This document shows positions 1,807 through 63,874 of a stretch of DNA of 64,000 nt, one piece after another. The DNA is from Dethiobacteria bacterium (GTDB lineage: Bacteria > Bacillota > Dethiobacteria > DTU022 > UBA8154), in NCBI GenBank assembly GCA_050942615.1, contig JBMNNQ010000001.1, forward strand, positions 12,385 through 76,384, given 5' to 3'. Made by a program: the position numbers and the translations under genes. A model generated the notes under the pieces. That model searched no databases. It had not been told where the DNA came from and saw nothing but the letters and a program-made list of their open reading frames with translations. Position 1 is the first letter of the stretch, and every line of letters starts with the position of its first letter.

Positions 1807-2604
1807 CTATTGCACTTTATATTCATATTTTTTATTCTTCAAACGGATACGATCGGCAATCAGGGCAATGAATTCAGAATTTGTAGGCTTTCCTTTTTCT
1901 GTATTTATTGTATAACCAAAGAACTTCTTAATTGTTTCAACACTGTTTCTGGACCAGGCCACTTCAATAGCATGGCGGATCGCACGTTCCACCCTGCTCG
2001 GTGTGGTTTCAAATTTTTCAGCAATACGGGGATAGAGAACCTTTGTTACCGAACCTAAAAGTTCTATTTCCTCGACGACCATGGCAATAGCATCGCGCAG
2101 ATAAAGGTAGCCCTTTATATGGGCCGGTATACCAATCTCGTGAATTATTTTGGTAATCTCCTCGATGAAGTTGTTTTTTTCCCTTTGCGGGGCCCTTTCC
2201 AAACTTGCAAGCGGGGCCCTTTGAATGTTAATTTGGTTTCTCCCCAACTGCCGGATTCTTTCTGCTAAAACCTCCAGGTTAAACGGTTTAAGGATGTAAT
2301 ATGAGGCCCCCAGTTCCACCGCTCTTTGTGTAATATTTTCATGTCCGAAGGCTGTTAACATAATCACCTTTGGTTTAGGTGATAAATCCATTCTTCCCAA
2401 CTCTTCCAACACACCGATGCCATCAAGATGCGGCATAATAATATCTAAAAGAACAATATCCGGCACATTTTCCTGCAGGAACGCCAAAGCCTCTTTTCCG
2501 TTATAAACATTGCCAATGACTTCGATATCCGGTTCTTTATTGATGTATTCCGATAAAAGTTCGTTAAATTCTCTATTGTCATCTGCAATTAATACTTTAA
2601 GCAT
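1807..2604 (-). CDS. spo0A: Sporulation master regulator Spo0A (response regulator)
   Basis: 265 aa. N-terminal receiver ([13 protein letters not shown]...[14 protein letters not shown]) and the typical Spo0A C-terminal DNA-binding domain ([12 protein letters not shown]...[15 protein letters not shown]). RBS GGAGG lies upstream. spoIVB is adjacent, as in Bacillus and Clostridium. Confidence 0.95.
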
Positions 2605-2662
2605 ATAAAAGCCCTCCTTAAGAAGTTCAAGATAAATTGTTATATTTCTTACTTATAAATTA

Positions 2663-2669
2663 TTCGACA
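2663..2669 (-). promoter_or_regulatory. Spo0A box (TGTCGAA on the spo0A sense strand) overlapping a sigmaH-like -10 (CGAAT), with AGGAATT as a candidate -35
   Basis: Plus strand reads ttcgaca at 2663-2669, about 60 nt upstream of the spo0A start. The minus strand reads AAGGAATTaccttccaattgTCGAATaa. This is consistent with an autoregulated Ps-type promoter. Confidence 0.45.
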
Positions 2670-2745
2670 ATTGGAAGGTAATTCCTTCTTAAAGGAGGAA
2701 TATTTTAGGCTTTTATATAAAAAATAACAGTTTCAGGTAATTTAA

Positions 2746-4071
2746 TTACGAAACCGGTAAAAGTTCCATCTCTTTAACCATCCATTCTGCAAAAATTCCA
2801 TATCCCCGGGAAGGATCATTTACAAAGACATGTGTTACAGCGCCCACCAGACGCCCGTTTTGAATAATAGGACTGCCGCTCATACCCTGTACGATCCCCC
2901 CGGTCTGGGTCAATAGATCCTCATCGACCACCTTGATAATAATTCCTTTATCCACAGGTTTATTTTGATTAAGCACTTTTTCTATTTCCAGGCAAAAACT
3001 CTGTATTTTATTGCCCTCCACCACGGTGAGCATTTCTGCCGGTCCGGGTTCCACTTCAAAACAAAGCCCCAGCGGAATGGGATTTGGATAGGGGGTTTCA
3101 CAGGCGGCAATATTTTTTAGCCTGCCATAAATACCAAAATCGGTATTTTTATTAATAGTCCCCAGGATATCCCTGCCCTCTCTAAAAACCCCTGCCTTTT
3201 CCCCGGGCTGCCCCCGCTGGGCCATTTTTATATTTACGATATCTGCCCGTACAATCAAACCTTCGTCAATTTCCAATATCGTACGGGTGTCACTGTCGGT
3301 GATAATATGGCCCAGCGCCCCGTAATACTCCCTCTCAGGTTCATAAAAGGTCAGGGTCCCTACGCCGGCGGCAGTGTCGCGGATATAAAGACCGATACGG
3401 TACTCCCGGCTGTCAGGGCACATCCGGGGAACAACCTGCAGCTCCAAATTTTCACCTTTTCTTTTCACAAGAAACTTTAAGGCCCCTTTTTGAGATTCTT
3501 TGCCAATCACTTTTGCAGCTTCATCCAAATCCTTGATATTGATACCATTAACTTCTAGAATAGTATCGCCGATCAATATGCCGCTGTCCTCTGCCGGTGA
3601 GAACTTTCTCCCCCCGTCTTCCAAATAAAAATACCCAACGACCAGTGCCCCTTCTGCATGCAATTTTATGCCGATAGAATGGCCGCCGGGGTGCAGCGTT
3701 ATCTCCGGTAAAACGCTGACGGTGAGCTGCCTGATGGGAATTAGACCTTTGAACAGACTAAATTCTAGTTGAACATGGCCTTTGTTTAAACCGCGTAGAG
3801 AAACACCCTTTTGGGAGTGCAGATGACTGAATTCATTGCTGTTAATCATATCGCCGTTGATATTCAATATATCAGTTTTATCGGCTTTGATATAAAGTTT
3901 TAAAGGAGATTTAACCTGGTAGGAATATTCCTGGCCTTCAAAAAGGCGCAGACTGTCTTCTAGATTATTTTTAATTCCTAAAGAAAAAGATACTGATAGC
4001 AACAGCAAAAAAAACACGATGGTGAAGACTATATTTTTTTTGAAAAAATTACGCACAAAAAAACCCCCCAC
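2746..4071 (-). CDS. spoIVB: SpoIVB serine peptidase (S55)
   Basis: 441 aa with an N-terminal signal/TM segment, a PDZ-like region and a C-terminal GGIVQGMSGSPII..GRLVGAVTHV catalytic region. The apparent start is GTG. It sits between recN and spo0A. Confidence 0.9.
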   Translation of the reverse strand: MGGFFVRNFFKKNIVFTIVFFLLLLSVSFSLGIKNNLEDSLRLFEGQEYSYQVKSPLKLYIKADKTDILNINGDMINSNEFSHLHSQKGVSLRGLNKGHVQLEFSLFKGLIPIRQLTVSVLPEITLHPGGHSIGIKLHAEGALVVGYFYLEDGGRKFSPAEDSGILIGDTILEVNGINIKDLDEAAKVIGKESQKGALKFLVKRKGENLELQVVPRMCPDSREYRIGLYIRDTAAGVGTLTFYEPEREYYGALGHIITDSDTRTILEIDEGLIVRADIVNIKMAQRGQPGEKAGVFREGRDILGTINKNTDFGIYGRLKNIAACETPYPNPIPLGLCFEVEPGPAEMLTVVEGNKIQSFCLEIEKVLNQNKPVDKGIIIKVVDEDLLTQTGGIVQGMSGSPIIQNGRLVGAVTHVFVNDPSRGYGIFAEWMVKEMELLPVS

Positions 4072-4199
4072 AGAGCCATAAAGATTTTAGGTTACAACTT
4101 TAAATTGTCTCGAGGAGGGTTTTTTTATCCCTTTTTATTTACATAATAAAATTGTTTTATTTGGCAGTACTGCAATGAGAGATTTTGTCATTTTAAGCG

Positions 4200-5891
4200 T
4201 TAAGCAAGCTCTTGTCCTTTTTTTAAAAGTTCTGCTGCATGTTTTTTGGTAATTTCGTCTATGTTCCCACCGTTTAAAAGGCGTGCAATTTCCATGATCC
4301 TTTTTTCCCCCTGGAGGTAGCGGACAGCGGTGGCTGTGCGCCCCCCGGAAACCTCTTTAAAAATATAGTATTGATGCGCGGCGGCGCTGGCAATTTGCGG
4401 GCTGTGCGTCACACAGATTACCTGGTGTTTTTTACTTAACCCGACCATTTTTTCCGAAATTTTTTGGATGGTATAGCCGCCGATGCCGCTGTCTATTTCA
4501 TCGAAAATAAGGGTGGGAATTTGATCCTGTTCTGCCAAAATGCTTTTTAAGGCCAGCATTACCCGGGCGGCTTCTCCCCCGGAAATAATGCGTACCAGCG
4601 ACTTTGGAGGTTCACCGGGGTTGGCGGAAAAAAGAAACTCTAGCTCCTCTTGACCTTCTGGTCCCGGCGTCTTTTGTGCCCTGAATTGAATGTCAAAACA
4701 GGCACTTTCCATACTGAGTTCTTGTAAGGCTTCTGTAACAAGCAATTTTAAGTTTTGGGCTGTTTTTTTTCTTTGGGTTGTCAATTGGGCGGCAATTTGT
4801 GCGATTTCCTGCCGAAGGTTTTTTTCTTCTGCTTCCCAACGCAAAATTTCTGTTGCACTGTTTTCTAGCACGGTTATTTCCTGTATACATTTTTCCGCAA
4901 AAGAAAGTACCTCTTCCACCGTAGAACCATACTTTTCTTTTAAACGCCGGTAAATTTCCAAGCGGTTTTCTGTTTCTGTTTTTTCTGCCGCTGAATAGGT
5001 CAAACTGTCTAAATAAGTGTAGAGTTCACGGCTTAATTCGGTGAGGCTTGTACTAATTTCCTGTAAAATTTCTACGAAAGGTACCAGCTGGGGGTCAATT
5101 TCCAATAAAGCAGACATCTCTTTTTCGATACTGCCAATTCGATCCACAATCGGGGGCTGCTGCGCACCTTCACTACTATAAATTTCAAAATAGGCCCGGT
5201 TGGCTAAAGTATGCAACTTTTCCATATTATCAAGCAGCAAAAGCCTTTGTTTCAAAGATTCTTCTTCTGCTGCCGAAAGAGAGGCTTCTAAAATTTCATC
5301 CCTTTGAAAAATGAGCAGTTCCAGCTTTCTTTTTCTCTCTTCAGGAGAAGCCCCCCTGGCTTTTAATTTTTTTTGCACCTGCCGCCAGCGGCGGTAGAAC
5401 TCCTGGTAGCTGTATTTTACATTTAATAGTTCCTTGCCGCCAAATTCATCCAAAAAAAACATGTGTTTCTCCGGTTTCAGGAGTGATTGGTGGTTGTGCT
5501 GACCGTGCAGGTCTACAAGCACACTGCCCAACTCTTTTAATAGTGACAGGGGGACAGCCCTGCCATTGACACGGCAGATATTGCGACCGCTACGGGAAAT
5601 TTCCCGCAGGATAATCAATTCCGTTTCCTGCAGCAGACCGTTTTCCGCTAGTATCCCCCTTAACTGTTTATTATCCGGGGCAACAGTAAAGACAGTTTCA
5701 ATAAAGGCTTGTTCGGTGCCGGAGCGGACCTGTTCACTGGAAGCCCTTTCTCCTAAAATAAGATTTATGGCCCCGATCAACATGGACTTCCCTGCACCTG
5801 TTTCCCCCGTTAAAACATTCATCCCGGGAAAAAACTCCAGGGATAAATCATCGATCAGCGCAAAGTTTTGCATATGTAAATATGCAAGCAT
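4200..5891 (-). CDS. recN: DNA repair protein RecN
   Basis: Walker A LTGETGAGKS close to the N-terminus, a long coiled-coil and a C-terminal SMC-like ATPase signature. The start was chosen at the internal MLAYLHMQNF (position 5891); the 37-residue upstream extension to 6002 has no RecN-like sequence. Confidence 0.9.
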   Translation of the reverse strand: MLAYLHMQNFALIDDLSLEFFPGMNVLTGETGAGKSMLIGAINLILGERASSEQVRSGTEQAFIETVFTVAPDNKQLRGILAENGLLQETELIILREISRSGRNICRVNGRAVPLSLLKELGSVLVDLHGQHNHQSLLKPEKHMFFLDEFGGKELLNVKYSYQEFYRRWRQVQKKLKARGASPEERKRKLELLIFQRDEILEASLSAAEEESLKQRLLLLDNMEKLHTLANRAYFEIYSSEGAQQPPIVDRIGSIEKEMSALLEIDPQLVPFVEILQEISTSLTELSRELYTYLDSLTYSAAEKTETENRLEIYRRLKEKYGSTVEEVLSFAEKCIQEITVLENSATEILRWEAEEKNLRQEIAQIAAQLTTQRKKTAQNLKLLVTEALQELSMESACFDIQFRAQKTPGPEGQEELEFLFSANPGEPPKSLVRIISGGEAARVMLALKSILAEQDQIPTLIFDEIDSGIGGYTIQKISEKMVGLSKKHQVICVTHSPQIASAAAHQYYIFKEVSGGRTATAVRYLQGEKRIMEIARLLNGGNIDEITKKHAAELLKKGQELA

Positions 5892-6016
5892 TCCCAAATA
5901 CCCCCTAAGGAAGTTCGGAAGTTTCCCGTAAAACAAATAAATATATAATGGCAAAAATAACCAGGATTTCAGCAGGATGGTATAAGCTGAGGCCGCCGGC
6001 ATAAACCGGCACGTTG

Positions 6017-6865
6017 TCAGATCAGTTTATCGTGCAGCAGTTTATAGAAATTACTTTCGGGAAAGGTAATCACTTTGGTTTTATAGGCGGCCTTTTTCAC
6101 CCGGACATGATCCTTATAATTCAAGGCAAAACCTTCCTGCCCATCCAGGGTTAAAAATATATCGGCGTATTCTGTGGCAATGCTGACCGTAACAACATCA
6201 TTTTTATCCACAATAACAGAACGTTGATAAAGCAGGTGGGGACAGATCGGTGTGACCACCAAAACATTCAAGGCTGGATGGACCACCGGGCCGCCGGCAG
6301 ACAGGGAATAGCCTGTTGAACCGGTAGGGCTGGAAATAATGACCCCGTCCCCGGGGTAGCTTTCCAAAAAATCATCGTTAATATAGGTGTCCAGCTTAAT
6401 AATCCTGGAAAAAGGACCCCTGGAAATAATAACATCATTGAGACAAAGAGCCGAGGCAAAAGTTTTCCCTGCCCTGATGACTTCTGTTTGCAGCATCATT
6501 CTTTCTTCCAGGCGAAAATTTCCGTCAATTAACTGCTGCAGGGAAAAGGTAAGCTTATCCACCTCTATTTCGGCCAAAAAACCTTTATGCCCCATGTTTA
6601 TGCCCAACAGGGGCAGATCTGTAAAAGTCAGTTCCCGGGCCACCCTTAAGAAAGTGCCGTCACCGCCCAGGACAATCACCAAGTCAGTTTTTTGCGACCA
6701 TTCCTGAATTTCTTTGATGGGTGAGGAAAGATATAAAAGAGGGTCTTTTTCAGGAACAACATATACCGGCACGTCATATTTACCAAAAAAATTTTTGATC
6801 TGTTCAATGACAGCATGCATTTTTTCTTTTTGCCAGTTGGGAACAACCCCAATACCCTTAAACAT
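6017..6865 (-). CDS. nadK: NAD+ kinase
   Basis: 282 aa with a GGDGTFLRVAREL motif and NAD-kinase-like architecture. Confidence 0.9.
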   Translation of the reverse strand: MFKGIGVVPNWQKEKMHAVIEQIKNFFGKYDVPVYVVPEKDPLLYLSSPIKEIQEWSQKTDLVIVLGGDGTFLRVARELTFTDLPLLGINMGHKGFLAEIEVDKLTFSLQQLIDGNFRLEERMMLQTEVIRAGKTFASALCLNDVIISRGPFSRIIKLDTYINDDFLESYPGDGVIISSPTGSTGYSLSAGGPVVHPALNVLVVTPICPHLLYQRSVIVDKNDVVTVSIATEYADIFLTLDGQEGFALNYKDHVRVKKAAYKTKVITFPESNFYKLLHDKLI

Positions 6866-9812: not shown

Positions 9813-10451
9813 CTATGCATTCCTCTTCCAGATAGAAATGCGCTCCAGGGTTGTTAAAAAACGGGCTACAAATAACACTACATCCGTTGGTCTGTTAATA
9901 GCCAGTGTTTTACCCAATGCCTTGCCGCCCACTGTTAAAGCGGATACCGCTCCTGCCAAAAAAATACTCAAAATAACTTCACTTAGTATTGGGTTACCCC
10001 GGACAAGGTTAACCACGATCACTGTCCCAATGATGCCGCTTACTATGCCGCTGATGTCCCCGATGACATCATTACAAAAGCTGGCCACCAGATCTGCATG
10101 GCGTACGAGAAAAATGCTTTTTTTTGCACCATAAATTTTTTTAGCCGCTTTGGCATGAAAAGGTATCTCCTCTGCCGCAGTAACGGCAGTGCCAATCACG
10201 TCAAAAAAAATGCCCATAAAAATAATGAAAATGAGAAGCATAAAGGAAATCAGCATGGAATGCAGGTTTTGCAACAAGGAGTGTGTGATCAGGGTAAGGG
10301 CTATGGCCAAAAAAAAAGTCCAAATACTGACTAAAACCACCCAGCGTTTATTATTTTTACTTTTCCATTGTTTTTGCCGTTGTTTTTTTGTGCCCAATAA
10401 TATTACGCTCGCTGCCATATAATATGATAATGATAAAAGTGGCAGCTCCAT
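9813..10451 (-). CDS. oapA: OLE-associated membrane protein OapA-like (multi-TM). Start uncertain: 10451 or 10499
   Basis: Polytopic membrane protein encoded immediately downstream of the OLE-like RNA and upstream of dxs. This is the conserved ispA-OLE-oapA-dxs arrangement. Sequence identity to characterised OapA could not be checked here. Confidence 0.6.
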   Translation of the reverse strand: MELPLLSLSYYMAASVILLGTKKQRQKQWKSKNNKRWVVLVSIWTFFLAIALTLITHSLLQNLHSMLISFMLLIFIIFMGIFFDVIGTAVTAAEEIPFHAKAAKKIYGAKKSIFLVRHADLVASFCNDVIGDISGIVSGIIGTVIVVNLVRGNPILSEVILSIFLAGAVSALTVGGKALGKTLAINRPTDVVLFVARFLTTLERISIWKRNA

Positions 10452-10454
10452 GGG

Positions 10455-11065
10455 TAAACTTTGCGGCTTAAGGTCCAGCAGGTTTTCCCAAATGTTCACC
10501 GGCTTGTCACCAAGCGGCAGTTTCCTATTAAGAACATCTCTGCTGTGTTACCACCAACAGGGCTGGATTACCACTTAGACCACACCTTAATCCCCATGGA
10601 GCCTCCCTACGACGGGGAACAGCCTAGGAGTTTTCCTCAATGCCGCAACATCGTTTTCTATCCTTTTTTGCAGCCCTGGTTTCCTAAGGGATGTTCCCTT
10701 CCTCCCCCAAAGCCACTCAAGGCAGGCTACACTGTGCACAGTTTTGACCACACACAGGTTCTATCCTAAGCCGTAACCTTTTACCCCTACAGTAATACGC
10801 CACCAACTTAGGTCTCCACGAAGGCAGGGTCAACGCCTACATGCCTTTGTAGATCGCCCCGTCCTTCTTAACCCCCAGCACCGACCCCCGTCTGGGCTTC
10901 GGCCGCCGGCACCAGGAACTTCATCGATATGCCTTGAGCGGTTTTTCCCGCCCGCTTTCAAAAACGCTTGCGGCAACTAGGATACTGCACCACTATGTCC
11001 AGTTAAATTATAGCATATCATCCCTGGCAACTCAACGCTATTCCCCGGGCGAAAAGTCTAGGGGT
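10455..11065 (-). ncRNA. ole: OLE (ornate, large, extremophilic) RNA candidate
   Basis: About 600 nt with no protein-coding capacity in any frame, GC-rich with many short complementary segments. It lies exactly between ispA (stop at 11066) and a multi-TM gene followed by dxs, which is the diagnostic genomic context of OLE RNA in anaerobic Firmicutes. A TATAAT-like element sits near 10995-11010 on the minus strand. RNase P and tmRNA motifs were not found. Confidence 0.7.
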
Positions 11066-26403: not shown

Positions 26404-26940
26404 TTATGCTTCCGGAGGATGGTTCTCTCCCTCGTCATTTATTTCTTCCAGCTCTTCTTCCCATTCCTCATCATTGATAAAAACAACTTTCCCGCAGTTA
26501 GGGCAGAGTACCTCCAGGGAATCTTCATTTTCCAGGATATCGTTGTCAATTGGCACCTCCTGATGACATTCCGGGCATTCTATTGAAAAGCTGACTTCAT
26601 ACTCATCAAGATCGTCCAAGTCATCGTGATCATCAGGATCGCCATCGTCGTCAAAATCGTCAAAATCATCGAAGTCGTCGTCATCGTCATCAAAGTCATC
26701 ATCGTCATCGTCATCATCGTCAAAACTGTCATTTTCCAGGTCGGTCAGATCTTCATCAATGGCTTCAACATAGGAAAAAAGTTCTTCATAATCATCTTTT
26801 AAGGTATTGATAGAGCTGACAATATCATCGAGCACAGCTATGATTTGGTGAAAAACCTTGCCTTCTTTTTTGTCATCCGAAACCCCCAGCCCTTCGACCA
26901 AACCCTTTAAGTATCCCATCCTGGCATCAAGATTTTCCAT
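26404..26940 (-). CDS. Highly acidic poly-Asp protein with a C-terminal double CxxC zinc ribbon (CD1247-N-domain-like)
   Basis: 178 aa. A run of more than 40 Asp-rich residues (DDDDDDDDDFDDDDDDFDDFDDFDDDGDPDDHDDLDD) and C-terminal CPEC...CPNC. RBS AAGGAGGG. It occupies the slot between efp and spoIIIAA. Confidence 0.7.
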   Translation of the reverse strand: MENLDARMGYLKGLVEGLGVSDDKKEGKVFHQIIAVLDDIVSSINTLKDDYEELFSYVEAIDEDLTDLENDSFDDDDDDDDDFDDDDDDFDDFDDFDDDGDPDDHDDLDDLDEYEVSFSIECPECHQEVPIDNDILENEDSLEVLCPNCGKVVFINDEEWEEELEEINDEGENHPPEA

Positions 26941-46119: not shown

Positions 46120-47589
46120 TTACGAAGTCACAAAATGAAAATAAAAGGTTGTGCCCCGGCCGGGTTCGCTGCGCACTTCTATGGTGACGCCGTGTCTTGC
46201 AGCAATCTGTTTGGCAATTGCCAGGCCCAACCCGGTACCGGTTTTATTTTCTTCCGATCGCTGCCGATGAAAACGCTCGAAAATATGGGGCAGTTCAGCA
46301 GGCGGTATGCCGGGGCCGTTATCATGGACAGAAAGTGTAAAGCCTTTTGCCGCTTGTTTTATTTGCAGGCCCACTGTTGCACCGGCCGGTGAAAACTTGA
46401 TGGCGTTGTCTAATACAATCATCAGCATCTGCCGCAGCCGGCCGTAGTCACCCTGCAGGGTAAAACCCCCGCCGTTTGTATCCAGTTCCTGTTTTAGTGC
46501 CACATTTTTTGCCTGGGCCCCGCGCCTCATGCCCCGCAAAGCATCGGCAGCTATTTCCGGCAGGTTAACCGCCTGCATATCCATTACAAAATCAGGGTTT
46601 TGCAGCCGCGCCAAATTAAGCAGATCGGTAATCAGCCGTTCCAGGTAGATGCTCTCTGTCAGCATCTGCCGGTGATAATCGGCCACCGTATCCGGTTCCG
46701 AAACCACACCATCGTGCAGGGCCTCCAGCGAACCGCGGATAACAGTAACCGGCGTACGCAGTTCATGGGAAATATTAGCCACAAAATCCCGCCGCAGCTT
46801 TTCAAGCTTGGCGCTTTCCCGGGAAGCAAGGTCTAACTTTGCCGCCATCCTGTCCAGGGCGCCGGCCAGCTCGCCGATTTCGTCGTCCTGGGCCACACCG
46901 GTTGCAGCCCGGTAGTCACCGCCGCTAATTTTCAGGGCAGCAGTTTTCATTTTGCGCAGCGGTCTTGTAAAGTGCCGCGCCAAAATACCGGCGATGAAAA
47001 AGGAAACGACAATTGCCGTCCCCATGCTGAACAGCAAAATGAGCAGGCCGCTTCTGGTTGTCTGCCAAATACTTTCGATCTGTTCGTGCAACACCACAGC
47101 ACCGGCGATTTCACCGCCGGGCAGGATAATGGGCGTCGCTACCGTAAGGGAAGGTTGGCCTAAAAACGCCCCGAAATTTTCACTAAATGTAGGGCGGCCG
47201 TCCAGCGCCGCCAAAATGACATTTTCAGCCCCGGGCGGCAAGTCCTGGTAGGCGAGGCTTGCCTGCCCGTGACCGCGCTCAATCTGTTTTAAACTGAGAT
47301 CGACAATCCACACATCGGCCTCGGTGAGATCGTTTAAAAACCGGAGATGACTGCCATAACCCCGGCCCCGGCCCATTTTACCGTGATTCGGCCCGTGTTC
47401 CGGGCTGTCCGTTTCCAGCCCGGCCAGAGAATGGGCAATGCGCCGGGCTTGATTTCCCAGTTCAGTTTTATGAAGATCCATGCTGTGGCGTGAAAAAAGG
47501 GAAAAAAATACGAGGCCGATCAGGAGTGAAAAGGTCAGCAGCGATCCTGAGAAATACAGCAGCAGGCGAAAATAAATTTTATTTTTCAC
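46120..47589 (-). CDS. Sensor histidine kinase (TM-sensor-HAMP-HisKA-HATPase)
   Basis: H-box ISHELRTPVT and N/G1/G2 boxes. Confidence 0.9.
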   Translation of the reverse strand: MKNKIYFRLLLYFSGSLLTFSLLIGLVFFSLFSRHSMDLHKTELGNQARRIAHSLAGLETDSPEHGPNHGKMGRGRGYGSHLRFLNDLTEADVWIVDLSLKQIERGHGQASLAYQDLPPGAENVILAALDGRPTFSENFGAFLGQPSLTVATPIILPGGEIAGAVVLHEQIESIWQTTRSGLLILLFSMGTAIVVSFFIAGILARHFTRPLRKMKTAALKISGGDYRAATGVAQDDEIGELAGALDRMAAKLDLASRESAKLEKLRRDFVANISHELRTPVTVIRGSLEALHDGVVSEPDTVADYHRQMLTESIYLERLITDLLNLARLQNPDFVMDMQAVNLPEIAADALRGMRRGAQAKNVALKQELDTNGGGFTLQGDYGRLRQMLMIVLDNAIKFSPAGATVGLQIKQAAKGFTLSVHDNGPGIPPAELPHIFERFHRQRSEENKTGTGLGLAIAKQIAARHGVTIEVRSEPGRGTTFYFHFVTS

Positions 47590-48281
47590 AGCGTCGCCTC
47601 AAATTTATAGCCCACGCCCCAGACGGTTTTAATTTCCCAGTTTTCGTGAGAAACCTGTTCCAATTTGGCCCGCAACCTTTTAATGTGGGAATCAACCGTG
47701 CGGGTATCTCCTGCATAGTCATAGCCCCAGAGGCTGTTTAACAGATTATCGCGGGTAAACACCTTATCTTTGTTGATCGCCAGCGTCCACAAGATTTCAG
47801 TTTCCTTTTTGGTGAGGGGAATGCGGGTACCGTCAATTTCTGTACGGTATTCATCCAGGTTGATCAGCAGGTTCCCAAAGGTAAAAATTTGTGCCTGCGT
47901 ATCATCTTCCTGTGCAACGCGGCGCAAAACGGCCCGCACACGCGCCATCACCTCAGCCGGCGAAAAAGGTTTGACGATATAATCATCGGCACCAATATCC
48001 AAACCCATGATGCGTTCAAAATCTTCTCCCCGGGCCGTAATCATAATCACAGGCACACTGCTCTGCCGGCGAATTTCCCGGCAGACTGTAAAACCATCCA
48101 GGCCGGGCATCATAACATCAAGCAGGATTATGGCAAAGTTTCCCGCGCGTGTTTTTTCCAGCGCACCGGTTCCGTCAAAGGCTGTCGTGACAGTAAAGCC
48201 TTCCTTGACAGCGTAGGCCTTTAAGACCGCAACGATCTGCCGGTTGTCGTCAGCGATTAGCATTTCCAGCACCGCCCTCAC
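47586..48281 (-). CDS. OmpR-family response regulator
   Basis: Receiver domain (ILLDVMMPGLDG) and winged-helix C-terminus (TRTVDSHIKRLRAKL). Confidence 0.9.
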   Translation of the reverse strand: MRAVLEMLIADDNRQIVAVLKAYAVKEGFTVTTAFDGTGALEKTRAGNFAIILLDVMMPGLDGFTVCREIRRQSSVPVIMITARGEDFERIMGLDIGADDYIVKPFSPAEVMARVRAVLRRVAQEDDTQAQIFTFGNLLINLDEYRTEIDGTRIPLTKKETEILWTLAINKDKVFTRDNLLNSLWGYDYAGDTRTVDSHIKRLRAKLEQVSHENWEIKTVWGVGYKFEATL

Positions 48282-53140: not shown

Positions 53141-54526
53141 TCAGTGCCTCCTAAAGGCCGTTTCAAAATTTTTCGCCCCGAATAAGCCCTTGGGTAGCTT
53201 TTCCCCAAAAGTTTGCAGTTTTTCCATGTTGCGGGGAATAATGCCGGTGGGCACATGTTTTCCGGCAATGCGGCCCCTTTCATTAAATCCCGTTTGTTCA
53301 AAAATAAAAATGTCCTGCAAGGTAATAATATCCCCCTCCATCCCTGCTACCTCCGATACTTTGACAATCTTGCGGCTGCCATCAGGAAGGCGGGACTGTT
53401 GAATAATCAGGTCAATAGCCGAGGCAACCTGCTCACGGATCGCCCGCAAAGGCAGGTTTATGCCTGCCATAAGCACCATGGTTTCCAGGCGCGCCAGCGC
53501 GTCCCGGGGGTTGTTGGCATGCAGGGTGGAAATGGAGCCGTCGTGGCCGGTATTCATTGCCTGCAGCATGTCAAGTGCCTCGCCTCCCCGCACCTCTCCA
53601 ACCACAATGCGGTCCGGGCGCATACGCAGTGAGTTAATCACCAGATCACGAATTGTGATTTCCCCATGGCCTTCAATGTCTGGAGGGCGGCTTTCCAGGG
53701 TAACAACATGTTCCTGATGCAGTTGTAGTTCTGCGGCATCCTCGATGGTTACAATTCTTTCCTGTTCGGGGATAAAACCGGAGAGCACATTTAAGGTCGT
53801 CGTTTTGCCGCTGCCGGTCCCCCCGGAAACAATAATATTGAGGCGGGCCAGCACTGCAGACTTGAACAGGCGGGCAATCTCCCCGGTCATGGTCCCGAAA
53901 TTAATCAGATCCCCGGGGGTCAAGGGCTTTGCCGCAAACTTACGGATAGTCAAGGCAGGCCCTTTTAAGGCCAACGGCGGAATGATGGCGTTAACACGGG
54001 AACCGTCCGGCAGGCGGGCGTCAACCATGGGCGACTTTTCATCCAGCCTTCTGCCCAAAGGGGTTACAATTTTATCGATAGTTTCAAGCAGATGTGCATT
54101 ATCACAAAAAGTAATCCCTGTTTTGATGATCTTCCCCTTTTGCTCCACATAAACCAACCCGGGGCCGTTAACCATAATTTCTGAAATGGTGGGATCCCGG
54201 AGCAGCGGGTTAATTGGCCCGTAACCACAGGCTTCGTCATAAATATGCCCGGCAATTTTTTCCTTGTCAGCCCGGGAAAGTTCAAGCCCGGAATCTTTGA
54301 GTACCGCTTCCAAGGCTACACTGATCTGCGCTGAATACTTTATTTTCTGTTGGGCATCCATTTTTCCGACAACAGGTGTCTTGCCTGGGCTTTCAAGAAC
54401 CCTGCGCAAAGTTGCGGTGATCAGGCCCTCCCATTCCTTTTTCCTGTTGAGGCCGTAATTTTCAGTTACAGGTTCTTTCCCCCCAGGGGCGAAGGCCCAT
54501 TGTGGCGGCAATTTCATTTTTCTCAC
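53141..54526 (-). CDS. tadA: Tad pilus assembly ATPase CpaF/TadA
   Basis: Walker [13 protein letters not shown], Asp box, Walker B and His box ([15 protein letters not shown]). Confidence 0.92.
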
Positions 54527-60031: not shown

Positions 60032-62450
60032 TTACACAGGCTTCCCCACCGGACACAGGGTCAGGTAAAAAACACCCTGGAAACAGGCGTAGGCGAGCAG
60101 TTCGGCTTGGGCAGGGGTTACCGCCAATGTTATGGAACGGGGGGCGGATGGGTTGTTTTCTACATTGTTTTGAATGTTGTTTCTTGGGATTTCCAGCACG
60201 ACAGCATTTTGGGCAACGGTGCGGGCAGCCTGTTGCATGTGGGCTGCCTGGTTGTTATAGATTACTAGGACGTCAACCTGATCGCCCGGCTGTAGATGAC
60301 TGTAAAGTCCGCCGCTTTCATTTATGGGCAGAGCCATGCCCCGCCGGCCGGGTGGTATGGAAACGGCCCAGCCGTTTGGCCTTCTTACATCTGCCGCAGC
60401 ATTTTTTGCAGGGGCAGCTGAAGCTGTGTTTTGCGTCTTTGCCGCTCTGTCAGCTGGCATGACTGCATATTCTGCTGTCGTAGCCAATCTGGCATCCTCT
60501 TCTTTCCAGGTGTTTGTCCCCTGCTTTACATCCGACGGATGGAATCCACCTTCCCCTTTTTCCCCCATAGCATCCCCGGACCGGCTTTCACTTTCCTTTA
60601 CCTTCCCTGCAATATCCAACGGCTGATCTTCGTTGTCCTTTACCTCCCCTGCAAACCCCTGCAGCAGGAGCCTCCTTGACCCCCTTTTTTCCGCAGTAGC
60701 GGGCTCAAAGGCCTCTTCCTCACTATAATTAACTGTGGGCTGAGGGCCTGCACCTGTTTTAGCCGCAATATCCCCTGAACTATGGGCATAATTGCCGGGG
60801 ATATCTGCCAGAAAACCAATCCTCCTTTCTGGAATTTTTGTTGCATAAACTGTATTTTCAGTTGAAACAGCAACATCACTGAGTATCAGATTGTTAGCAG
60901 TCAGCACTGCAGCACTGCCTGCCCTTTTTTCAGCATCCGTTCCCAACCCTTTTTCTATTAATGGATATTTCTTTTTTAAGTCCCCTTTCAGGGCAGGGAA
61001 GCTCTCTTCCGGGGTGGGGTAGGCAAAGGTCCCGTCTGTAGCGATCTCTTCCCCACAGGCCTTCAGTTTTTCCAGGCAACGGGGCACGACACCTGTGGGT
61101 CGGTATTCACCTTTGATGCGCCCCTCTTCATCTATGGATGACTGCTGAAAAACAAAGATATCGTTGACTACCAATTTGTCTTTCTTCAGGCCTGCTACTT
61201 CGCTGATTTTTGTGATTTTACGGCTGCCGTCACTAAGGCGGGACTGTTGCACAACTAGCTCCACCGCCGAGCCAATCTGTTCACGGATGGCCCGCAGGGG
61301 CAGTTCGATGCCCGCCATGAGGATCATGGTTTCCAGCCTCGCCAGGGCATCCTGGGGGTTGTTGGCGTGCAGGGTGGATATAGAGCCATCGTGCCCGGTG
61401 TTCATAGCCTGCAGCATGTCAAAGGCTTCGCCGCCCCGGACTTCCCCCACGATTATCCGATCCGGGCGCATACGCAGGGAATTGATCACCAGTTCCCGGA
61501 TGGTAAACTGCCCTTTGCCTTCAATGTTTGCCGGGCGGCTTTCCAGGGTAACAAGGTGATCCTGCTGCAGCTGCAGTTCGGCGGTGTCTTCAATAGTGAC
61601 AATACGTTCACTGCCGGGGATAAAACTGGAGAGGACGTTTAAGGTTGTAGTCTTGCCGCTGCCGGTTCCACCGGAAACTACGATGTTAAGCCGTGCCCGT
61701 ACACAGGCGGCCAGGAAGCGGGCCATTTCCCGGCTCAGCGTACCAAAGTTAATCAGGTCGTCGGCAGTGAAAGGATCGGCAGCAAACTTGCGAATCGTCA
61801 GGGATGGGCCACGCAGGGCCAGGGGGGGGAATGATAGCATTTACCCGGGAACCATCAGGCAGACGGGCGTCAACAGTGGGGGAACTTTCGTCAATCCTTC
61901 TGCCTAAAGGGGTAATAATCTTATTAATAACATGCAGGACATGGTTGTCATCACGAAAGGTTGCCCCTGTTTTGCTGATTTTTCCCTTCCGTTCAACGTA
62001 AACATTGGCATAGCCGTTGACCATAACCTCCGTTACACAGGGATCCTGCAACAGAGAGGTTATCGGCCCATAGCCAAATATTTCATCAGCAACATATTCG
62101 ATAACCTTTTTCCTGTCATCCTGAGAAAGAAGCTGTCCACTTTCTTCCAGCAGCCCCGCAAGGGTATTACAAATCTGTTCATCAAACTGTTTTTTTTGAA
62201 GGGGGTTCAGTTTATCCAGTTCCAGCTGCTTATCAAAGCTGTCAATTACCCGCCGCAAGGTTTGGGCAGCAATCTCCTCTAACCTTTTTTTCTTGCTCAC
62301 ACCCTTTTTGGGAATTGATGATGCCTTTGCCCGGGTTTTTGCAGTGCTGTTTCGTCCTGGAAGTATAAACACTTTTTTATGCCACCTTTTCAGCCCCCTA
62401 ATACCCCCAGGGCTGATTTTTTGAAGGTAAGAATTAAAATGAAAACACAA
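60032..62450 (-). pseudogene. Second cpaF/tadA-like ATPase gene split by a +1 frameshift in a C8 homopolymer (G8 on the plus strand, 61822-61829). Its downstream reading frame continues without a stop into a complete CpaB-like SAF domain that lacks a TM helix
   Basis: ORF 61749-62450 encodes the CpaF N-terminus and ends ...[15 protein letters not shown] 60032-61840 starts ...[15 protein letters not shown] with Walker [10 protein letters not shown] and the full ATPase core. Removing one C from the tract restores IIPPLAL, identical to the intact tadA at 53141-54526. The C-terminal ~300 aa align to CpaB (...[28 protein letters not shown] versus TITLAVTPGQAEVLAYAQLKGSFYFTL). Confidence 0.6.
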
Positions 62451-62483
62451 AAATCCCTGGTTGCCGGGTATGCGAACCAGGGA
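62434..62483 (-). terminator. Intrinsic terminator (10-bp stem AUCCCUGGUU...AACCAGGGAU followed by UUUUUGUGUUUUCAUUUU); likely the expression platform of the upstream riboswitch
   Basis: Perfect 10-bp inverted repeat at 62452-62483 and a U-run of about 5 followed by GUGUUUUCAUUUU on the minus strand that extends into the first codons of the downstream ORF. Confidence 0.7.
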
Positions 62484-62524
62484 TCAAGATACCAAAAGGT
62501 GCAGAACGACACAATCGTTCTTAT

Positions 62525-62645
62525 TTAGAACCCTGTCTTCGGCAGCCTGGCAATCCTAGCCTGCTTTGGCAGGCCTTAGACCCATAGCTTTGCGTCCCTT
62601 TCTTTCAAAAGGTTTGCCTTTATCGGTCAGTAAGCTGGTTACTTT
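62525..62645 (-). promoter_or_regulatory. GEMM-I (c-di-GMP-I) riboswitch aptamer candidate
   Basis: Minus strand reads AAAGGCAAACCUUUUGAAAGAAAGGGACGCAAAGCUAUGGGUCUAAGGCCUGCCAAAGCAGGCUAGGAUUGCCAGGCUGCC. This matches the GEMM-I core GGCAAACC-(GAAA hairpin)-GGGACGCAAAGC (compare Vc2 GGCAAACCAUUCGAAAGAGUGGGACGCAAAGCC) and is followed by a second hairpin and then a terminator. Located 5' of the tad/flp genes. Confidence 0.65.
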
Positions 62646-62842
62646 TGTAAGTCAGGTGAATGGTCTTATTTCAACAAAAGTTGTTTTTGGACATTTGCTC
62701 CTAACAAAACTGGTAATTTCTACACAGTTCTACAAAGAAGTTCTACATGGATTTGGTTTTTCCTGCAAATAATAATAATTTTTCATAATAAATTTATTAA
62801 AATTTGATAACATGATTGTCTTTACTACATTGTTTAAAAACA

Positions 62843-63874
62843 TTATAGCCGGGGGTTCCGGGCAGGAAGGTTAACTTCTAGGGCTATTTCTGCAACCTGT
62901 GGATCAAATTGGGTGCCGGCACAGCGGCGCAGCTCCTCCCGTACCTGCACCGGGGTTTTTGCCGGGGCATAGGGTCGGTTGGAAAGCATGGCATCAAGGG
63001 CATCGGCAACGGCAATAATCCGTGCCCCGTAAGGGATCTGTTTGCCCCGGAGACCTTCCGGGTAACCTGTCCCGTCAAATTTTTCATGGTGATAGAGGAT
63101 GATGGGCCGTTCTTTCTGCAAGAACCCAACAGGGGAAATGATTTCTGCGCCGATGACAGGATGTTGTTTAATAATTTTAAATTCCTGTTCTGTCAGCCGG
63201 CCGGTTTTTCTAAGAATCTGTTCGGGCACACCTATTTTTCCGATGTCATGCAAAATTGCTGCCTGCCATAAAACCTTTTTTTCCTCCTCCGGAAGGCCTA
63301 TTTTCTCCCCCAGGATCCCTGTAAAAAAAGCAACCCTTTCCTGATGCCCTTTGGTATAGGAATCTTTGGCATCAATTGCAGCCACCAGGGATCGCACTGT
63401 TTCCAGGTAATGATTTTGGATGTTCTGGCGGGCATTATCTATTTTTGTCCGGAGGGAGGCGTTGACCACCTGCAGCTCACTCTGCTTTTTCAACAGGGCA
63501 GCCTGCCTGGTACGGCGAACCAGCCCTTTTTTAACAACTTCTTTCACCGCACTACTGTCAAACGGTTTGATCAGATAATCCAGGGCACCCCGGCGCAGGG
63601 CGTTGGTGGCCGTTTCCACAGAAGCATAGGCGGTAATCATCACCACTTCTGTTTCCGGCACCTTGCTTTTGACCAAGGCAAGAAGATCTATGCCGTTAAT
63701 GTCGGGCATCCTGATATCCAGGATCACCAGATCAAATTCCTCAGCATCCAAATGGGCCAAAGCCTCGGCGCCACAGCTCGCCGTAGAAACTTCATAGTCA
63801 TCCCGCAGGATCATTTTCAGGGCTTCCCTAGGGCCCAGTTCATCATCAACAACCATTATTTTGGGGGTATTCAT
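62843..63874 (-). CDS. Response regulator with an HD-GYP c-di-GMP phosphodiesterase domain
   Basis: Receiver domain (KIMVVDDE...DLVILDIRMPDING) and an HD-GYP domain (HDIGKIGVP...HHEKFDGTGYPEGL). Start at MNTPKIM, preceded by GGAGAGGAG. Confidence 0.85.
   Translation of the reverse strand: MNTPKIMVVDDELGPREALKMILRDDYEVSTASCGAEALAHLDAEEFDLVILDIRMPDINGIDLLALVKSKVPETEVVMITAYASVETATNALRRGALDYLIKPFDSSAVKEVVKKGLVRRTRQAALLKKQSELQVVNASLRTKIDNARQNIQNHYLETVRSLVAAIDAKDSYTKGHQERVAFFTGILGEKIGLPEEEKKVLWQAAILHDIGKIGVPEQILRKTGRLTEQEFKIIKQHPVIGAEIISPVGFLQKERPIILYHHEKFDGTGYPEGLRGKQIPYGARIIAVADALDAMLSNRPYAPAKTPVQVREELRRCAGTQFDPQVAEIALEVNLPARNPRL

Follow-up and report, generated by a model that had tools for sequence, protein, structure and literature searches.

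A probable sigma-H-type promoter ahead of a c-di-GMP riboswitch and Tad pilus genes in a Dethiobacteria bacterium

The 64,000-nt stretch of DNA from a Dethiobacteria bacterium that was analysed here (hereafter, the window) contains, between a gene for a REC-HD-GYP response regulator and a c-di-GMP riboswitch, three direct copies of the heptamer TGTAGAA. We consider it probable, at roughly 60%, that the first of these copies belongs to a sigma-H-type promoter, of which it would be the -10 element, that the riboswitch transcribed from this promoter stands before Tad pilus genes, and that the second and third copies are lineage-specific. The proposed promoter would read GCAGGAAAA, followed by 11 nt and GTAGAAC, and would be served by sigma-H, the transition-state and early-sporulation factor. 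Its transcript would begin with a leader of ~105 nt, after which would come a c-di-GMP-I aptamer and an expression platform of the terminator type; read-through past this platform would reach the genes for the CpaF-like protein and the Tad pilus. The REC-HD-GYP protein, as the output of a two-kinase operon, would lower the level of c-di-GMP that the riboswitch senses, and copies 2 and 3, which overlap the predicted start of transcription (-3 to +15), might form a weak tandem operator at which a repressor would occlude the promoter.

The repeat and its conservation in related loci

On the plus strand, TTCTACA occurs at 62718-62724, 62728-62734 and 62741-62747, exactly the three positions, spaced 10 and 13, that the initial annotation of this DNA had claimed. 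The genes that neighbour the repeat all lie on the minus strand; read on this coding strand, the units are TGTAGAAC at 62747..62740 (copy 1) and again at 62734..62727 (copy 2), and TGTAGAAA at 62724..62717 (copy 3), that is, TGTAGAA followed by C in the first two cases and by A in the third, with start-to-start distances of 13 and 10 nt. It is unlikely that the TGTAGAA triple arose by chance: when spacers of 214 nt and 27% GC were simulated with a first-order Markov model, a non-overlapping triple of any heptamer within 31 nt turned up in 226 out of 100,000, and when all 64 kb were simulated 100 times, 6 of the runs contained a triple of any heptamer within 31 nt. TTCTACA itself is found 12 times in the window, as against 4.7 expected. 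Both strands of 2.2 Mb, comprising the window and related loci, contain no further cluster of TGTAG (at least three within 45 nt), other than those of the orthologues and one coding-region site.

The window was compared with four orthologous loci obtained by look-ups of individual HD-GYP homologues, namely L087, L088, L089 and L173, whose HD-GYP proteins are 87%, 88%, 80% and 77% identical to that of the window, respectively; the spacers of the same-species assemblies L001-L006 are almost identical to that of the window and hence uninformative. In all four orthologous loci, an aptamer of the c-di-GMP-I type lies 3' of the HD-GYP gene. The mean column identity in the alignment of the five spacers is 53%, and from the stop codon to the aptamer a single block is invariant, GCAGGAAA.A..AAA....TGTAGAA, which takes the form TTGCAGGAAAAACCAAATCCATGTAGAAC in the window, TAGCAGGAAAAACCAAACCTGTGTAGAAT in L087, TAGCAGGAAATATTAAACTTTTGTAGAAT in L088, TAGCAGGAAAAACTAAACTTATGTAGAAT in L089 and TAGCAGGAAAAACTAAACTTTTGTAGAAT in L173. 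Copy 1 is kept in all five species-level loci, each time with AGGA 17 nt 5' of GAA(T/C).

Of the four relatives, only L087, the nearest, has retained copies 2 and 3. L089 has copy 1 alone, with no further TGTAGAA, and all that is left beyond copy 1 in L173 is GGAATTACCAG, a remnant of copy 3. The units of L088 differ: TGTAATA at +10 and GGTAGAG at +27 are found along with a perfect tandem duplication of the 14-nt CTTGTAGCATTTTT, and altogether four further TGTAG-like units follow one another at intervals of 10-16 nt. The conservation in orthologous loci that an operator would lead one to expect is thus not seen for the triple, which is absent from L089 and L173 and has different units in L088. 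Within the lineage of the window and L087, copies 2 and 3 appear to be under constraint, as judged from this single pairwise comparison: none of the 21 core positions has changed, compared with 5 of 13 spacer positions (Fisher p = 0.0046, or p = 0.016 when only copies 2 and 3 are counted), and the segment 62739..62700 is identical at 38 of 40 positions, against a background of ~70%, being conserved like the aptamer (88 of 91).

These figures bear on the possibility that copies 2 and 3 have no function of their own and arose when the -10 region, within an AT-rich spacer, underwent slippage or was locally duplicated in tandem. Duplication does occur at this very place, the 14-nt repeat of L088 being not only perfect but evidently recent; moreover, the extra copies are dispensable in L173 and L089, and the leader varies in length among relatives from about 68 to 157 nt. 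The preservation of the heptamers amid changing spacers, the aptamer-like conservation of the whole segment and the low chance of such a triple, ~0.2% per spacer, all speak against this neutral origin, which we regard as quite unlikely.

The predicted promoter

The invariant block can be parsed as a promoter, GCAGGAAAA-ACCAAATCCAT-GTAGAACTT. The predicted -35 element, GCAGGAAAA (62758..62766 on the minus strand, with AGGA at 62764..62761), of which GCAGGAAA is invariant in all five loci, matches the AGGA of sigma-H promoters and conforms to AGGA(A/T)(A/T)(A/T). The predicted -10 element, GTAGAACTT (62738..62746, with GAAC at 62743..62740), is overlapped by copy 1 (62747..62741), whose TGTAGAA is likewise invariant in the five loci. 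AGGA and GAAC are separated by 17 nt (62760..62744), which falls within the 17-18 nt of sigma-H promoters. The sigma-H consensus of B. subtilis is RnAGGAwWW-N11-12-RnnGAATww; its strict version, RnAGGAwWW-N11-RnnGAATww, is matched exactly by L087 and L173 and has three occurrences in 571 kb of related loci (both strands), two of which are the riboswitch promoter. For SigH promoters, PMC12456013 describes a -35 AGGA and a -10 GAAT separated by 17-18 nt, with a resemblance to their counterparts in B. subtilis and C. difficile. With respect to RnnGAAT, the four orthologous species have GTAGAAT, and the window has GTAGAAC, as do 6/6 same-species assemblies; the GAAC of the window's own species should weaken a sigma-H promoter.

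An internal control is provided by the promoter of spo0A (2660..2688, minus strand), GAAGGAATT-ACCTTCCAATT-GTCGAATAA, which precedes the ORF at 1807..2604. This ORF encodes Spo0A (TIGR02875, 393.7 bits as against a cut-off of 200) and is adjoined by the genes for SpoIVB and RecN. With 11 nt between its two elements and AGGA to GAAT at 2686..2662, the spo0A promoter block has a geometry identical to that of the riboswitch promoter block. Passages in PMC11599450 (citing Predich 1992) and in PMC3485338 present spo0A as a classical sigma-H-transcribed gene. The conservation of copy 1 and AGGA in a sigma-H geometry, as at spo0A, makes it most likely that copy 1 is the -10 element of a promoter of the sigma-H type. 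Counted from the -10 element at 62746..62738, transcription would start at ~62731, so that copy 2 (62728..62734) would span about -3 to +4 and copy 3 (62718..62724) about +8 to +14; both the start site and the sigma-H dependence are predictions from sequence. The earlier suggestion, which placed the repeat within the probable promoter for transcription of the riboswitch, is supported. The organism itself is presumably an endospore-former, since it encodes Spo0A and SpoIVB; the sequence covered by the analysis contains no sigH gene. TGTAGAA is invariant at more positions than RnnGAAT requires; therefore, a DNA-binding factor could read copy 1 as well.

Several other sigma factors were considered and rejected. 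As a sigma-A promoter, the conserved block would have a poor -35 element (TTGCAG here, TAGCAG in the relatives) and, in the species of the window, would lack the T at -7; the SigD-like CCGATAA at 62626..62620 would place the start inside the aptamer; and the consensus sequences of sigma-54, ECF and sigma-E/F/G/K promoters are, on inspection, unlike the block. A weak sigma-A-like match, TTAATA-17-TATTAT, is found upstream at 62800..62772, and the AT-rich tract upstream of the conserved block is consistent with an UP element. Terminator-like sites were sought on the minus strand 3' of the HD-GYP gene, and none was found; therefore, transcription reading through from the kinase operon into the riboswitch region is also possible.

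In more distant relatives (L009, L010, L011, L092, L093, L094, L175 and L177), clear sigma-A promoters, e.g. TTGACA-17-TAATAT, occupy the equivalent position, and sigma-A promoters likewise accompany, among the matches listed in HD-GYP alignment scans of genome and metagenome contigs, those of mostly <=74% identity. Hence, a dedicated promoter in this spacer appears to be the rule, its type having turned over. This change from sigma-A to sigma-H type among close relatives, in front of a conserved riboswitch, is, together with a poly-C tract of variable length in the first downstream gene (see below), the most interesting by-product of the analysis.

Possible roles of the second and third copies

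The initial annotation took the repeat for a typical operator of a winged-helix response regulator. More broadly, all three TGTAGAA could be an operator for a DNA-binding response regulator, be it a winged-helix protein of the OmpR/PhoP/WalR type or Spo0A, either activating or repressing, and the conservation of copy 1 would thereby be explained too. The adjacent response regulator is not the binder of the repeats because it lacks, by Pfam, a DNA-binding domain, its output being the enzymatic HD-GYP domain; the window encodes, in addition, a putative candidate, an OmpR-family response regulator (47586..48281) paired with a histidine kinase (46120..47589). The non-randomness of the triple in simulations and the conservation of its cores relative to the spacers in L087 fit an operator, and the fact that L088 has gained TGTAG-containing repeats independently hints at selection for the repeat itself. 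However, L089 and L173 do without copies 2 and 3 although both have kept the promoter block and the riboswitch, there is no second such site on either strand of the 2.2 Mb, and the co-conserved AGGA 17 nt upstream is left unexplained. Activators of the OmpR type sit upstream of the -35 element. Operators of the OmpR/PhoB type are direct repeats with a period of ~10-11 bp that overlap the -35 element or lie upstream of it and are conserved in orthologous loci; the copies here are spaced 13 and 10 bp, which is not a regular helical repeat, extend from -10 to +15, the wrong place for a class I or class II activator, and are conserved across all five loci only in the case of copy 1, together with AGGA. 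The claim of a typical winged-helix operator, with copies 2 and 3 at or downstream of the predicted start, is therefore not supported. Two specific sites were also tried and rejected: the SinR site, GTTCTYT, since the units of L088 keep TGTAG and not GTTCT, and the WalR site, TGTWAH-N5-TGTWAH, which fits neither G as the fifth base nor a period of 10 bp.

As for Spo0A, it is literally true, as had been pointed out, that TGTAGAA is one mismatch away from a Spo0A box, being the C4A variant of TGTCGAA. Within the core of the box, G2, C4 and G5 are contacted; all three copies read TGTAGAA, and TGTCGAA does not occur in the spacer, the promoter of spo0A itself having a perfect 0A box, TGTCGAA, at 2669..2663. 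The replacement of the contacted base in C4A lowers the affinity of the C. difficile Spo0A DNA-binding domain ~10-fold, although near-consensus 0A boxes can be legitimate low-affinity targets (PMC3485338). Taken together, these observations make an operator made up of all three copies unlikely.

A narrower role for copies 2 and 3, compatible with copy 1 as the -10 element, can be envisaged. In the operator of abrB, tandem 0A boxes lie 10 bp apart, downstream of the start. Because copies 2 and 3 are C4A variants of the 0A box, arranged head-to-tail 10 bp apart on the predicted start as at abrB, our best guess, of low confidence, is that they are a weak repressor operator, for instance for Spo0A~P. 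By this analogy, Spo0A~P acting on low-affinity 0A boxes of the C4A type would be the most concrete candidate for the occluding repressor. The repeated units of L088, which keep TGTAG and not GAAT, argue against a purely sigma-H-related role of the extra copies and mildly favour a DNA-binding factor.

Copies 2 and 3 could also act in the RNA or in early elongation, either by forming a transcript-stabilising 5' hairpin (AGAACUGUGUA / UACCAGUUUU) or as -10-like sequences of the non-template strand causing sigma-dependent promoter-proximal pausing. A hairpin of -8.1 kcal/mol is indeed predicted at the extreme 5' end of the predicted transcript, but it is no better than those of shuffled sequences (z = -1.45; 16 of 200 shuffles fold as well), and the fold of the whole leader is likewise unremarkable (z = -0.71). 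The placing of -10-like elements at about +1 to +15 recalls the sigma-70 pause of lambda PR'; we know, however, of no precedent for sigma-H-dependent pausing, and the L088 units keep TGTAG and not GAAT, the sigma-H determinant. A role of this kind seems to us highly improbable.

Should sigma-H and the C4A-type 0A-like boxes both prove functional, the sporulation phosphorelay would be tied to riboswitch-gated Tad pili, whose expression would set in at the transition state, be adjusted by c-di-GMP and cease at high Spo0A~P, with a phase-variable poly-C tract as a third layer of control; this full scheme is speculative, and we consider it doubtful. The more limited proposition, that the promoter is sigma-H-dependent, would suffice to bring the c-di-GMP riboswitch and the Tad operon into the transition-state/sporulation regulon of an uncultured, OLE-RNA-bearing anaerobe and, thus, to link second-messenger and developmental control.

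The riboswitch, its neighbours and known systems

The aptamer, at 62538..62628 on the minus strand, is a c-di-GMP-I riboswitch (RF01051): the match covers model positions 1-87 with a score of 85.8 bits, as against a gathering score of 35 (E = 1.5e-15). From the repeats to the aptamer runs an AT-rich 5' leader (62629..62717), which shows little conservation and no significant fold. Downstream, the expression platform (62440..62486) contains an intrinsic-terminator-like hairpin, whose 10-nt arms are 62484..62475 and 62462..62453, and after it a U-run. Constrained thermodynamic folding did not discriminate between an ON and an OFF response to c-di-GMP, and a pairing between UAGAAC and GUUCUA of the platform was discarded, finding no support in minimum-free-energy folds. 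The first gene after the riboswitch (60032..62315, minus strand) encodes a CpaF-like (T2SSE) ATPase fused to an RcpC/CpaB domain and is split by a run of eight C (61822-61829); this poly-C tract is length-polymorphic. Downstream of the split gene follow flp, a prepilin peptidase gene, tadE, cpaB/E/F and tadB/C, and the window contains no second riboswitch before flp.

On the other side of the repeat, the gene at 62843..63874 on the minus strand encodes a 343-aa REC-HD-GYP response regulator of the RpfG type, with Pfam matches to Response_reg (7.5e-28) and HD_5/HD (1.5e-36) and with both motifs of the HD-GYP domain, HDIGK and HHEKFDGTGYP. Across 28 homologues, there is no variation at the receiver residues D10, D11, D53, T81 and K103. 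In L001, two sensor kinase genes overlap the response-regulator gene on its upstream side and, therefore, form one operon with it, in the order histidine kinase, histidine kinase, response regulator. The placing of this gene immediately upstream of, and co-oriented with, the riboswitch and the tad genes, as initially annotated, is confirmed by the domains, the RF01051 match and the strands.

At least 12 further related loci likewise have the HD-GYP gene next to the riboswitch; what varies is the gene that follows the riboswitch. Specifically, in L010, L011 and L092 the first riboswitch is followed by genes for a transglutaminase and an EAL-HDOD protein and by a second riboswitch (RF03167 in L010 and L011), after which, in L011, where the sequence continues, there is a CpaF-type ATPase gene. 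L089 has an EAL-HDOD gene between its two riboswitches, and L009 has a HisKA_3 kinase and a REC-GerE regulator there; in the window, a lone riboswitch directly precedes the CpaF-like gene. It is plausible, judging from this gene neighbourhood, that the HD-GYP protein, as a putative phosphodiesterase, sets the level of the ligand sensed by the riboswitch. The notion of a c-di-GMP control module for the Tad locus is only partly apt: in the window the riboswitch precedes Tad genes, but in relatives an EAL-HDOD gene or other genes come first.

These findings do not overturn current knowledge. They do contain a lesson of method, namely, that a short direct repeat beside a response-regulator gene need not be the operator of that regulator, since here a core promoter element accounts better for one of the copies.

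When compared with known systems, each part of the arrangement has familiar counterparts. GEMM-I riboswitches before pilus or tad genes and the c-di-GMP-II switch of pilA1 in C. difficile are known cases of riboswitch control of pilus genes, which the window resembles in having an aptamer and a terminator-type platform directly before genes of pilus assembly; unlike the pilA1 switch, the one described here belongs to class I, and the window has a single riboswitch, whereas relatives have an RF01051 riboswitch followed by one of RF03167, the two being separated by an EAL-HDOD gene. The putative promoter has in common with the sigma-H promoters known from Bacillus and Clostridia (spo0A Ps, spo0F, kinA, spoVG) an AGGA(A/T)3, a distance of 17 nt to the -10 element and AT-rich sequence upstream; the -10 element conforms to (R)nnGAAT in the four orthologous species but is GAAC in the window species, and a transcript composed of a c-di-GMP riboswitch and a pilus operon is not a known member of the sigma-H regulon. 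Copies 2 and 3, as direct head-to-tail heptamers 10 bp apart on or downstream of the start, are similar to the abrB boxes, from which the repeat differs in the A for C at position 4 of all three copies, in the additional 13-bp spacing and in being unconserved beyond the nearest relative. Like RpfG-type phosphodiesterases, the response regulator combines HD and GYP motifs with a receiver whose phospho-acceptor aspartate is conserved, and its operon also encodes cognate sensor kinases; its phosphodiesterase activity is putative, and its link to a riboswitch is one of conserved gene neighbourhood. Thus, what is seen is a fairly ordinary combination of a promoter and a riboswitch, assembled from parts of known kinds: a probable promoter of the sigma-H type, a riboswitch of the GEMM-I class and a response regulator like RpfG.

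Promoter turnover upstream of the first riboswitch

Judged from sequence, the type of promoter that precedes the first c-di-GMP riboswitch has turned over among the relatives of this bacterium. In eight loci of more distant relatives (L009, L010, L011, L092, L093, L094, L175 and L177), clear sigma-A promoters are found before this riboswitch and 3' of the HD-GYP gene, consisting of TTGACA or TTTACA followed, after 17 nt, by TAATAT, TATTAT or TATAAA. In the window and its four species-level orthologous loci (L087, L088, L089 and L173), the sigma-A promoter is replaced by an AGGA-N17-GAAT block. Directly upstream of the predicted -35 element of this block in the window lies an AT-rich imperfect inverted repeat (62766-62806) with 17-nt arms that are 82% complementary and 7 nt apart; this repeat could be a UP-element-like tract or a binding site.

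Riboswitches in series and a split ATPase gene

The window contains a single c-di-GMP riboswitch, whereas five of the related loci (L009, L010, L011, L089 and L092) carry two in series, an RF01051-type element followed by the RF03167 'GGC' variant (for example, 6251-6352 and 7762-7852 in L089). The genes enclosed by such pairs encode EAL-HDOD, transglutaminase, or HisKA_3 together with REC-GerE proteins, and the tad ATPase gene comes after the second riboswitch.

In the window, the first gene 3' of the riboswitch encodes a CpaF-like ATPase and is split by a homopolymeric C-run (61822-61829; G8 on the plus strand, C8 on the coding strand) into two minus-strand pieces, 61749..62315 and 60032..61840, with an RcpC/CpaB domain fused to the C-terminal part of the ATPase. 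Shortening the run to C7 would restore the frame and give the reading found in the second cpaF, which is intact (53141..54526). Three same-species assemblies (L001, L002 and L003) share the C8 of the window, a fourth (L005) has C9, and in the more distant L011 the run is interrupted (CCGCCCC); the run represents a phase-variable tract or else an assembly error at a homopolymer.

Regulatory genes and the spo0A promoter

A few kb past the tad genes, an OmpR-family response regulator (47586..48281) and a sensor kinase (46120..47589) are encoded on the minus strand. The pair is PhoPR/WalRK-like, with scores below the equivalog cut-offs. Of the ten proteins from the window that were scanned, only this regulator was identified as a DNA-binding response regulator of the winged-helix type. 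Within the whole window, the only other 7-mer triple inside 31 nt is GTCATCA near 26686, apparently in coding sequence.

The minus strand also carries a full-length OLE (ornate large extremophilic) RNA (10423-11009; 443 bits), at a distance of some 6 to 9 kb from recN, spoIVB and spo0A (1807..6002). Upstream of spo0A (1807..2604), the minus-strand element GAAGGAATT-N11-GTCGAATAA (2660-2688) is, by its sequence, a textbook sigma-H-type promoter. Since a perfect 0A box, TGTCGAA (2669..2663), falls inside its -10 region, this arrangement suggests that Spo0A autoregulates at its own sigma-H promoter.
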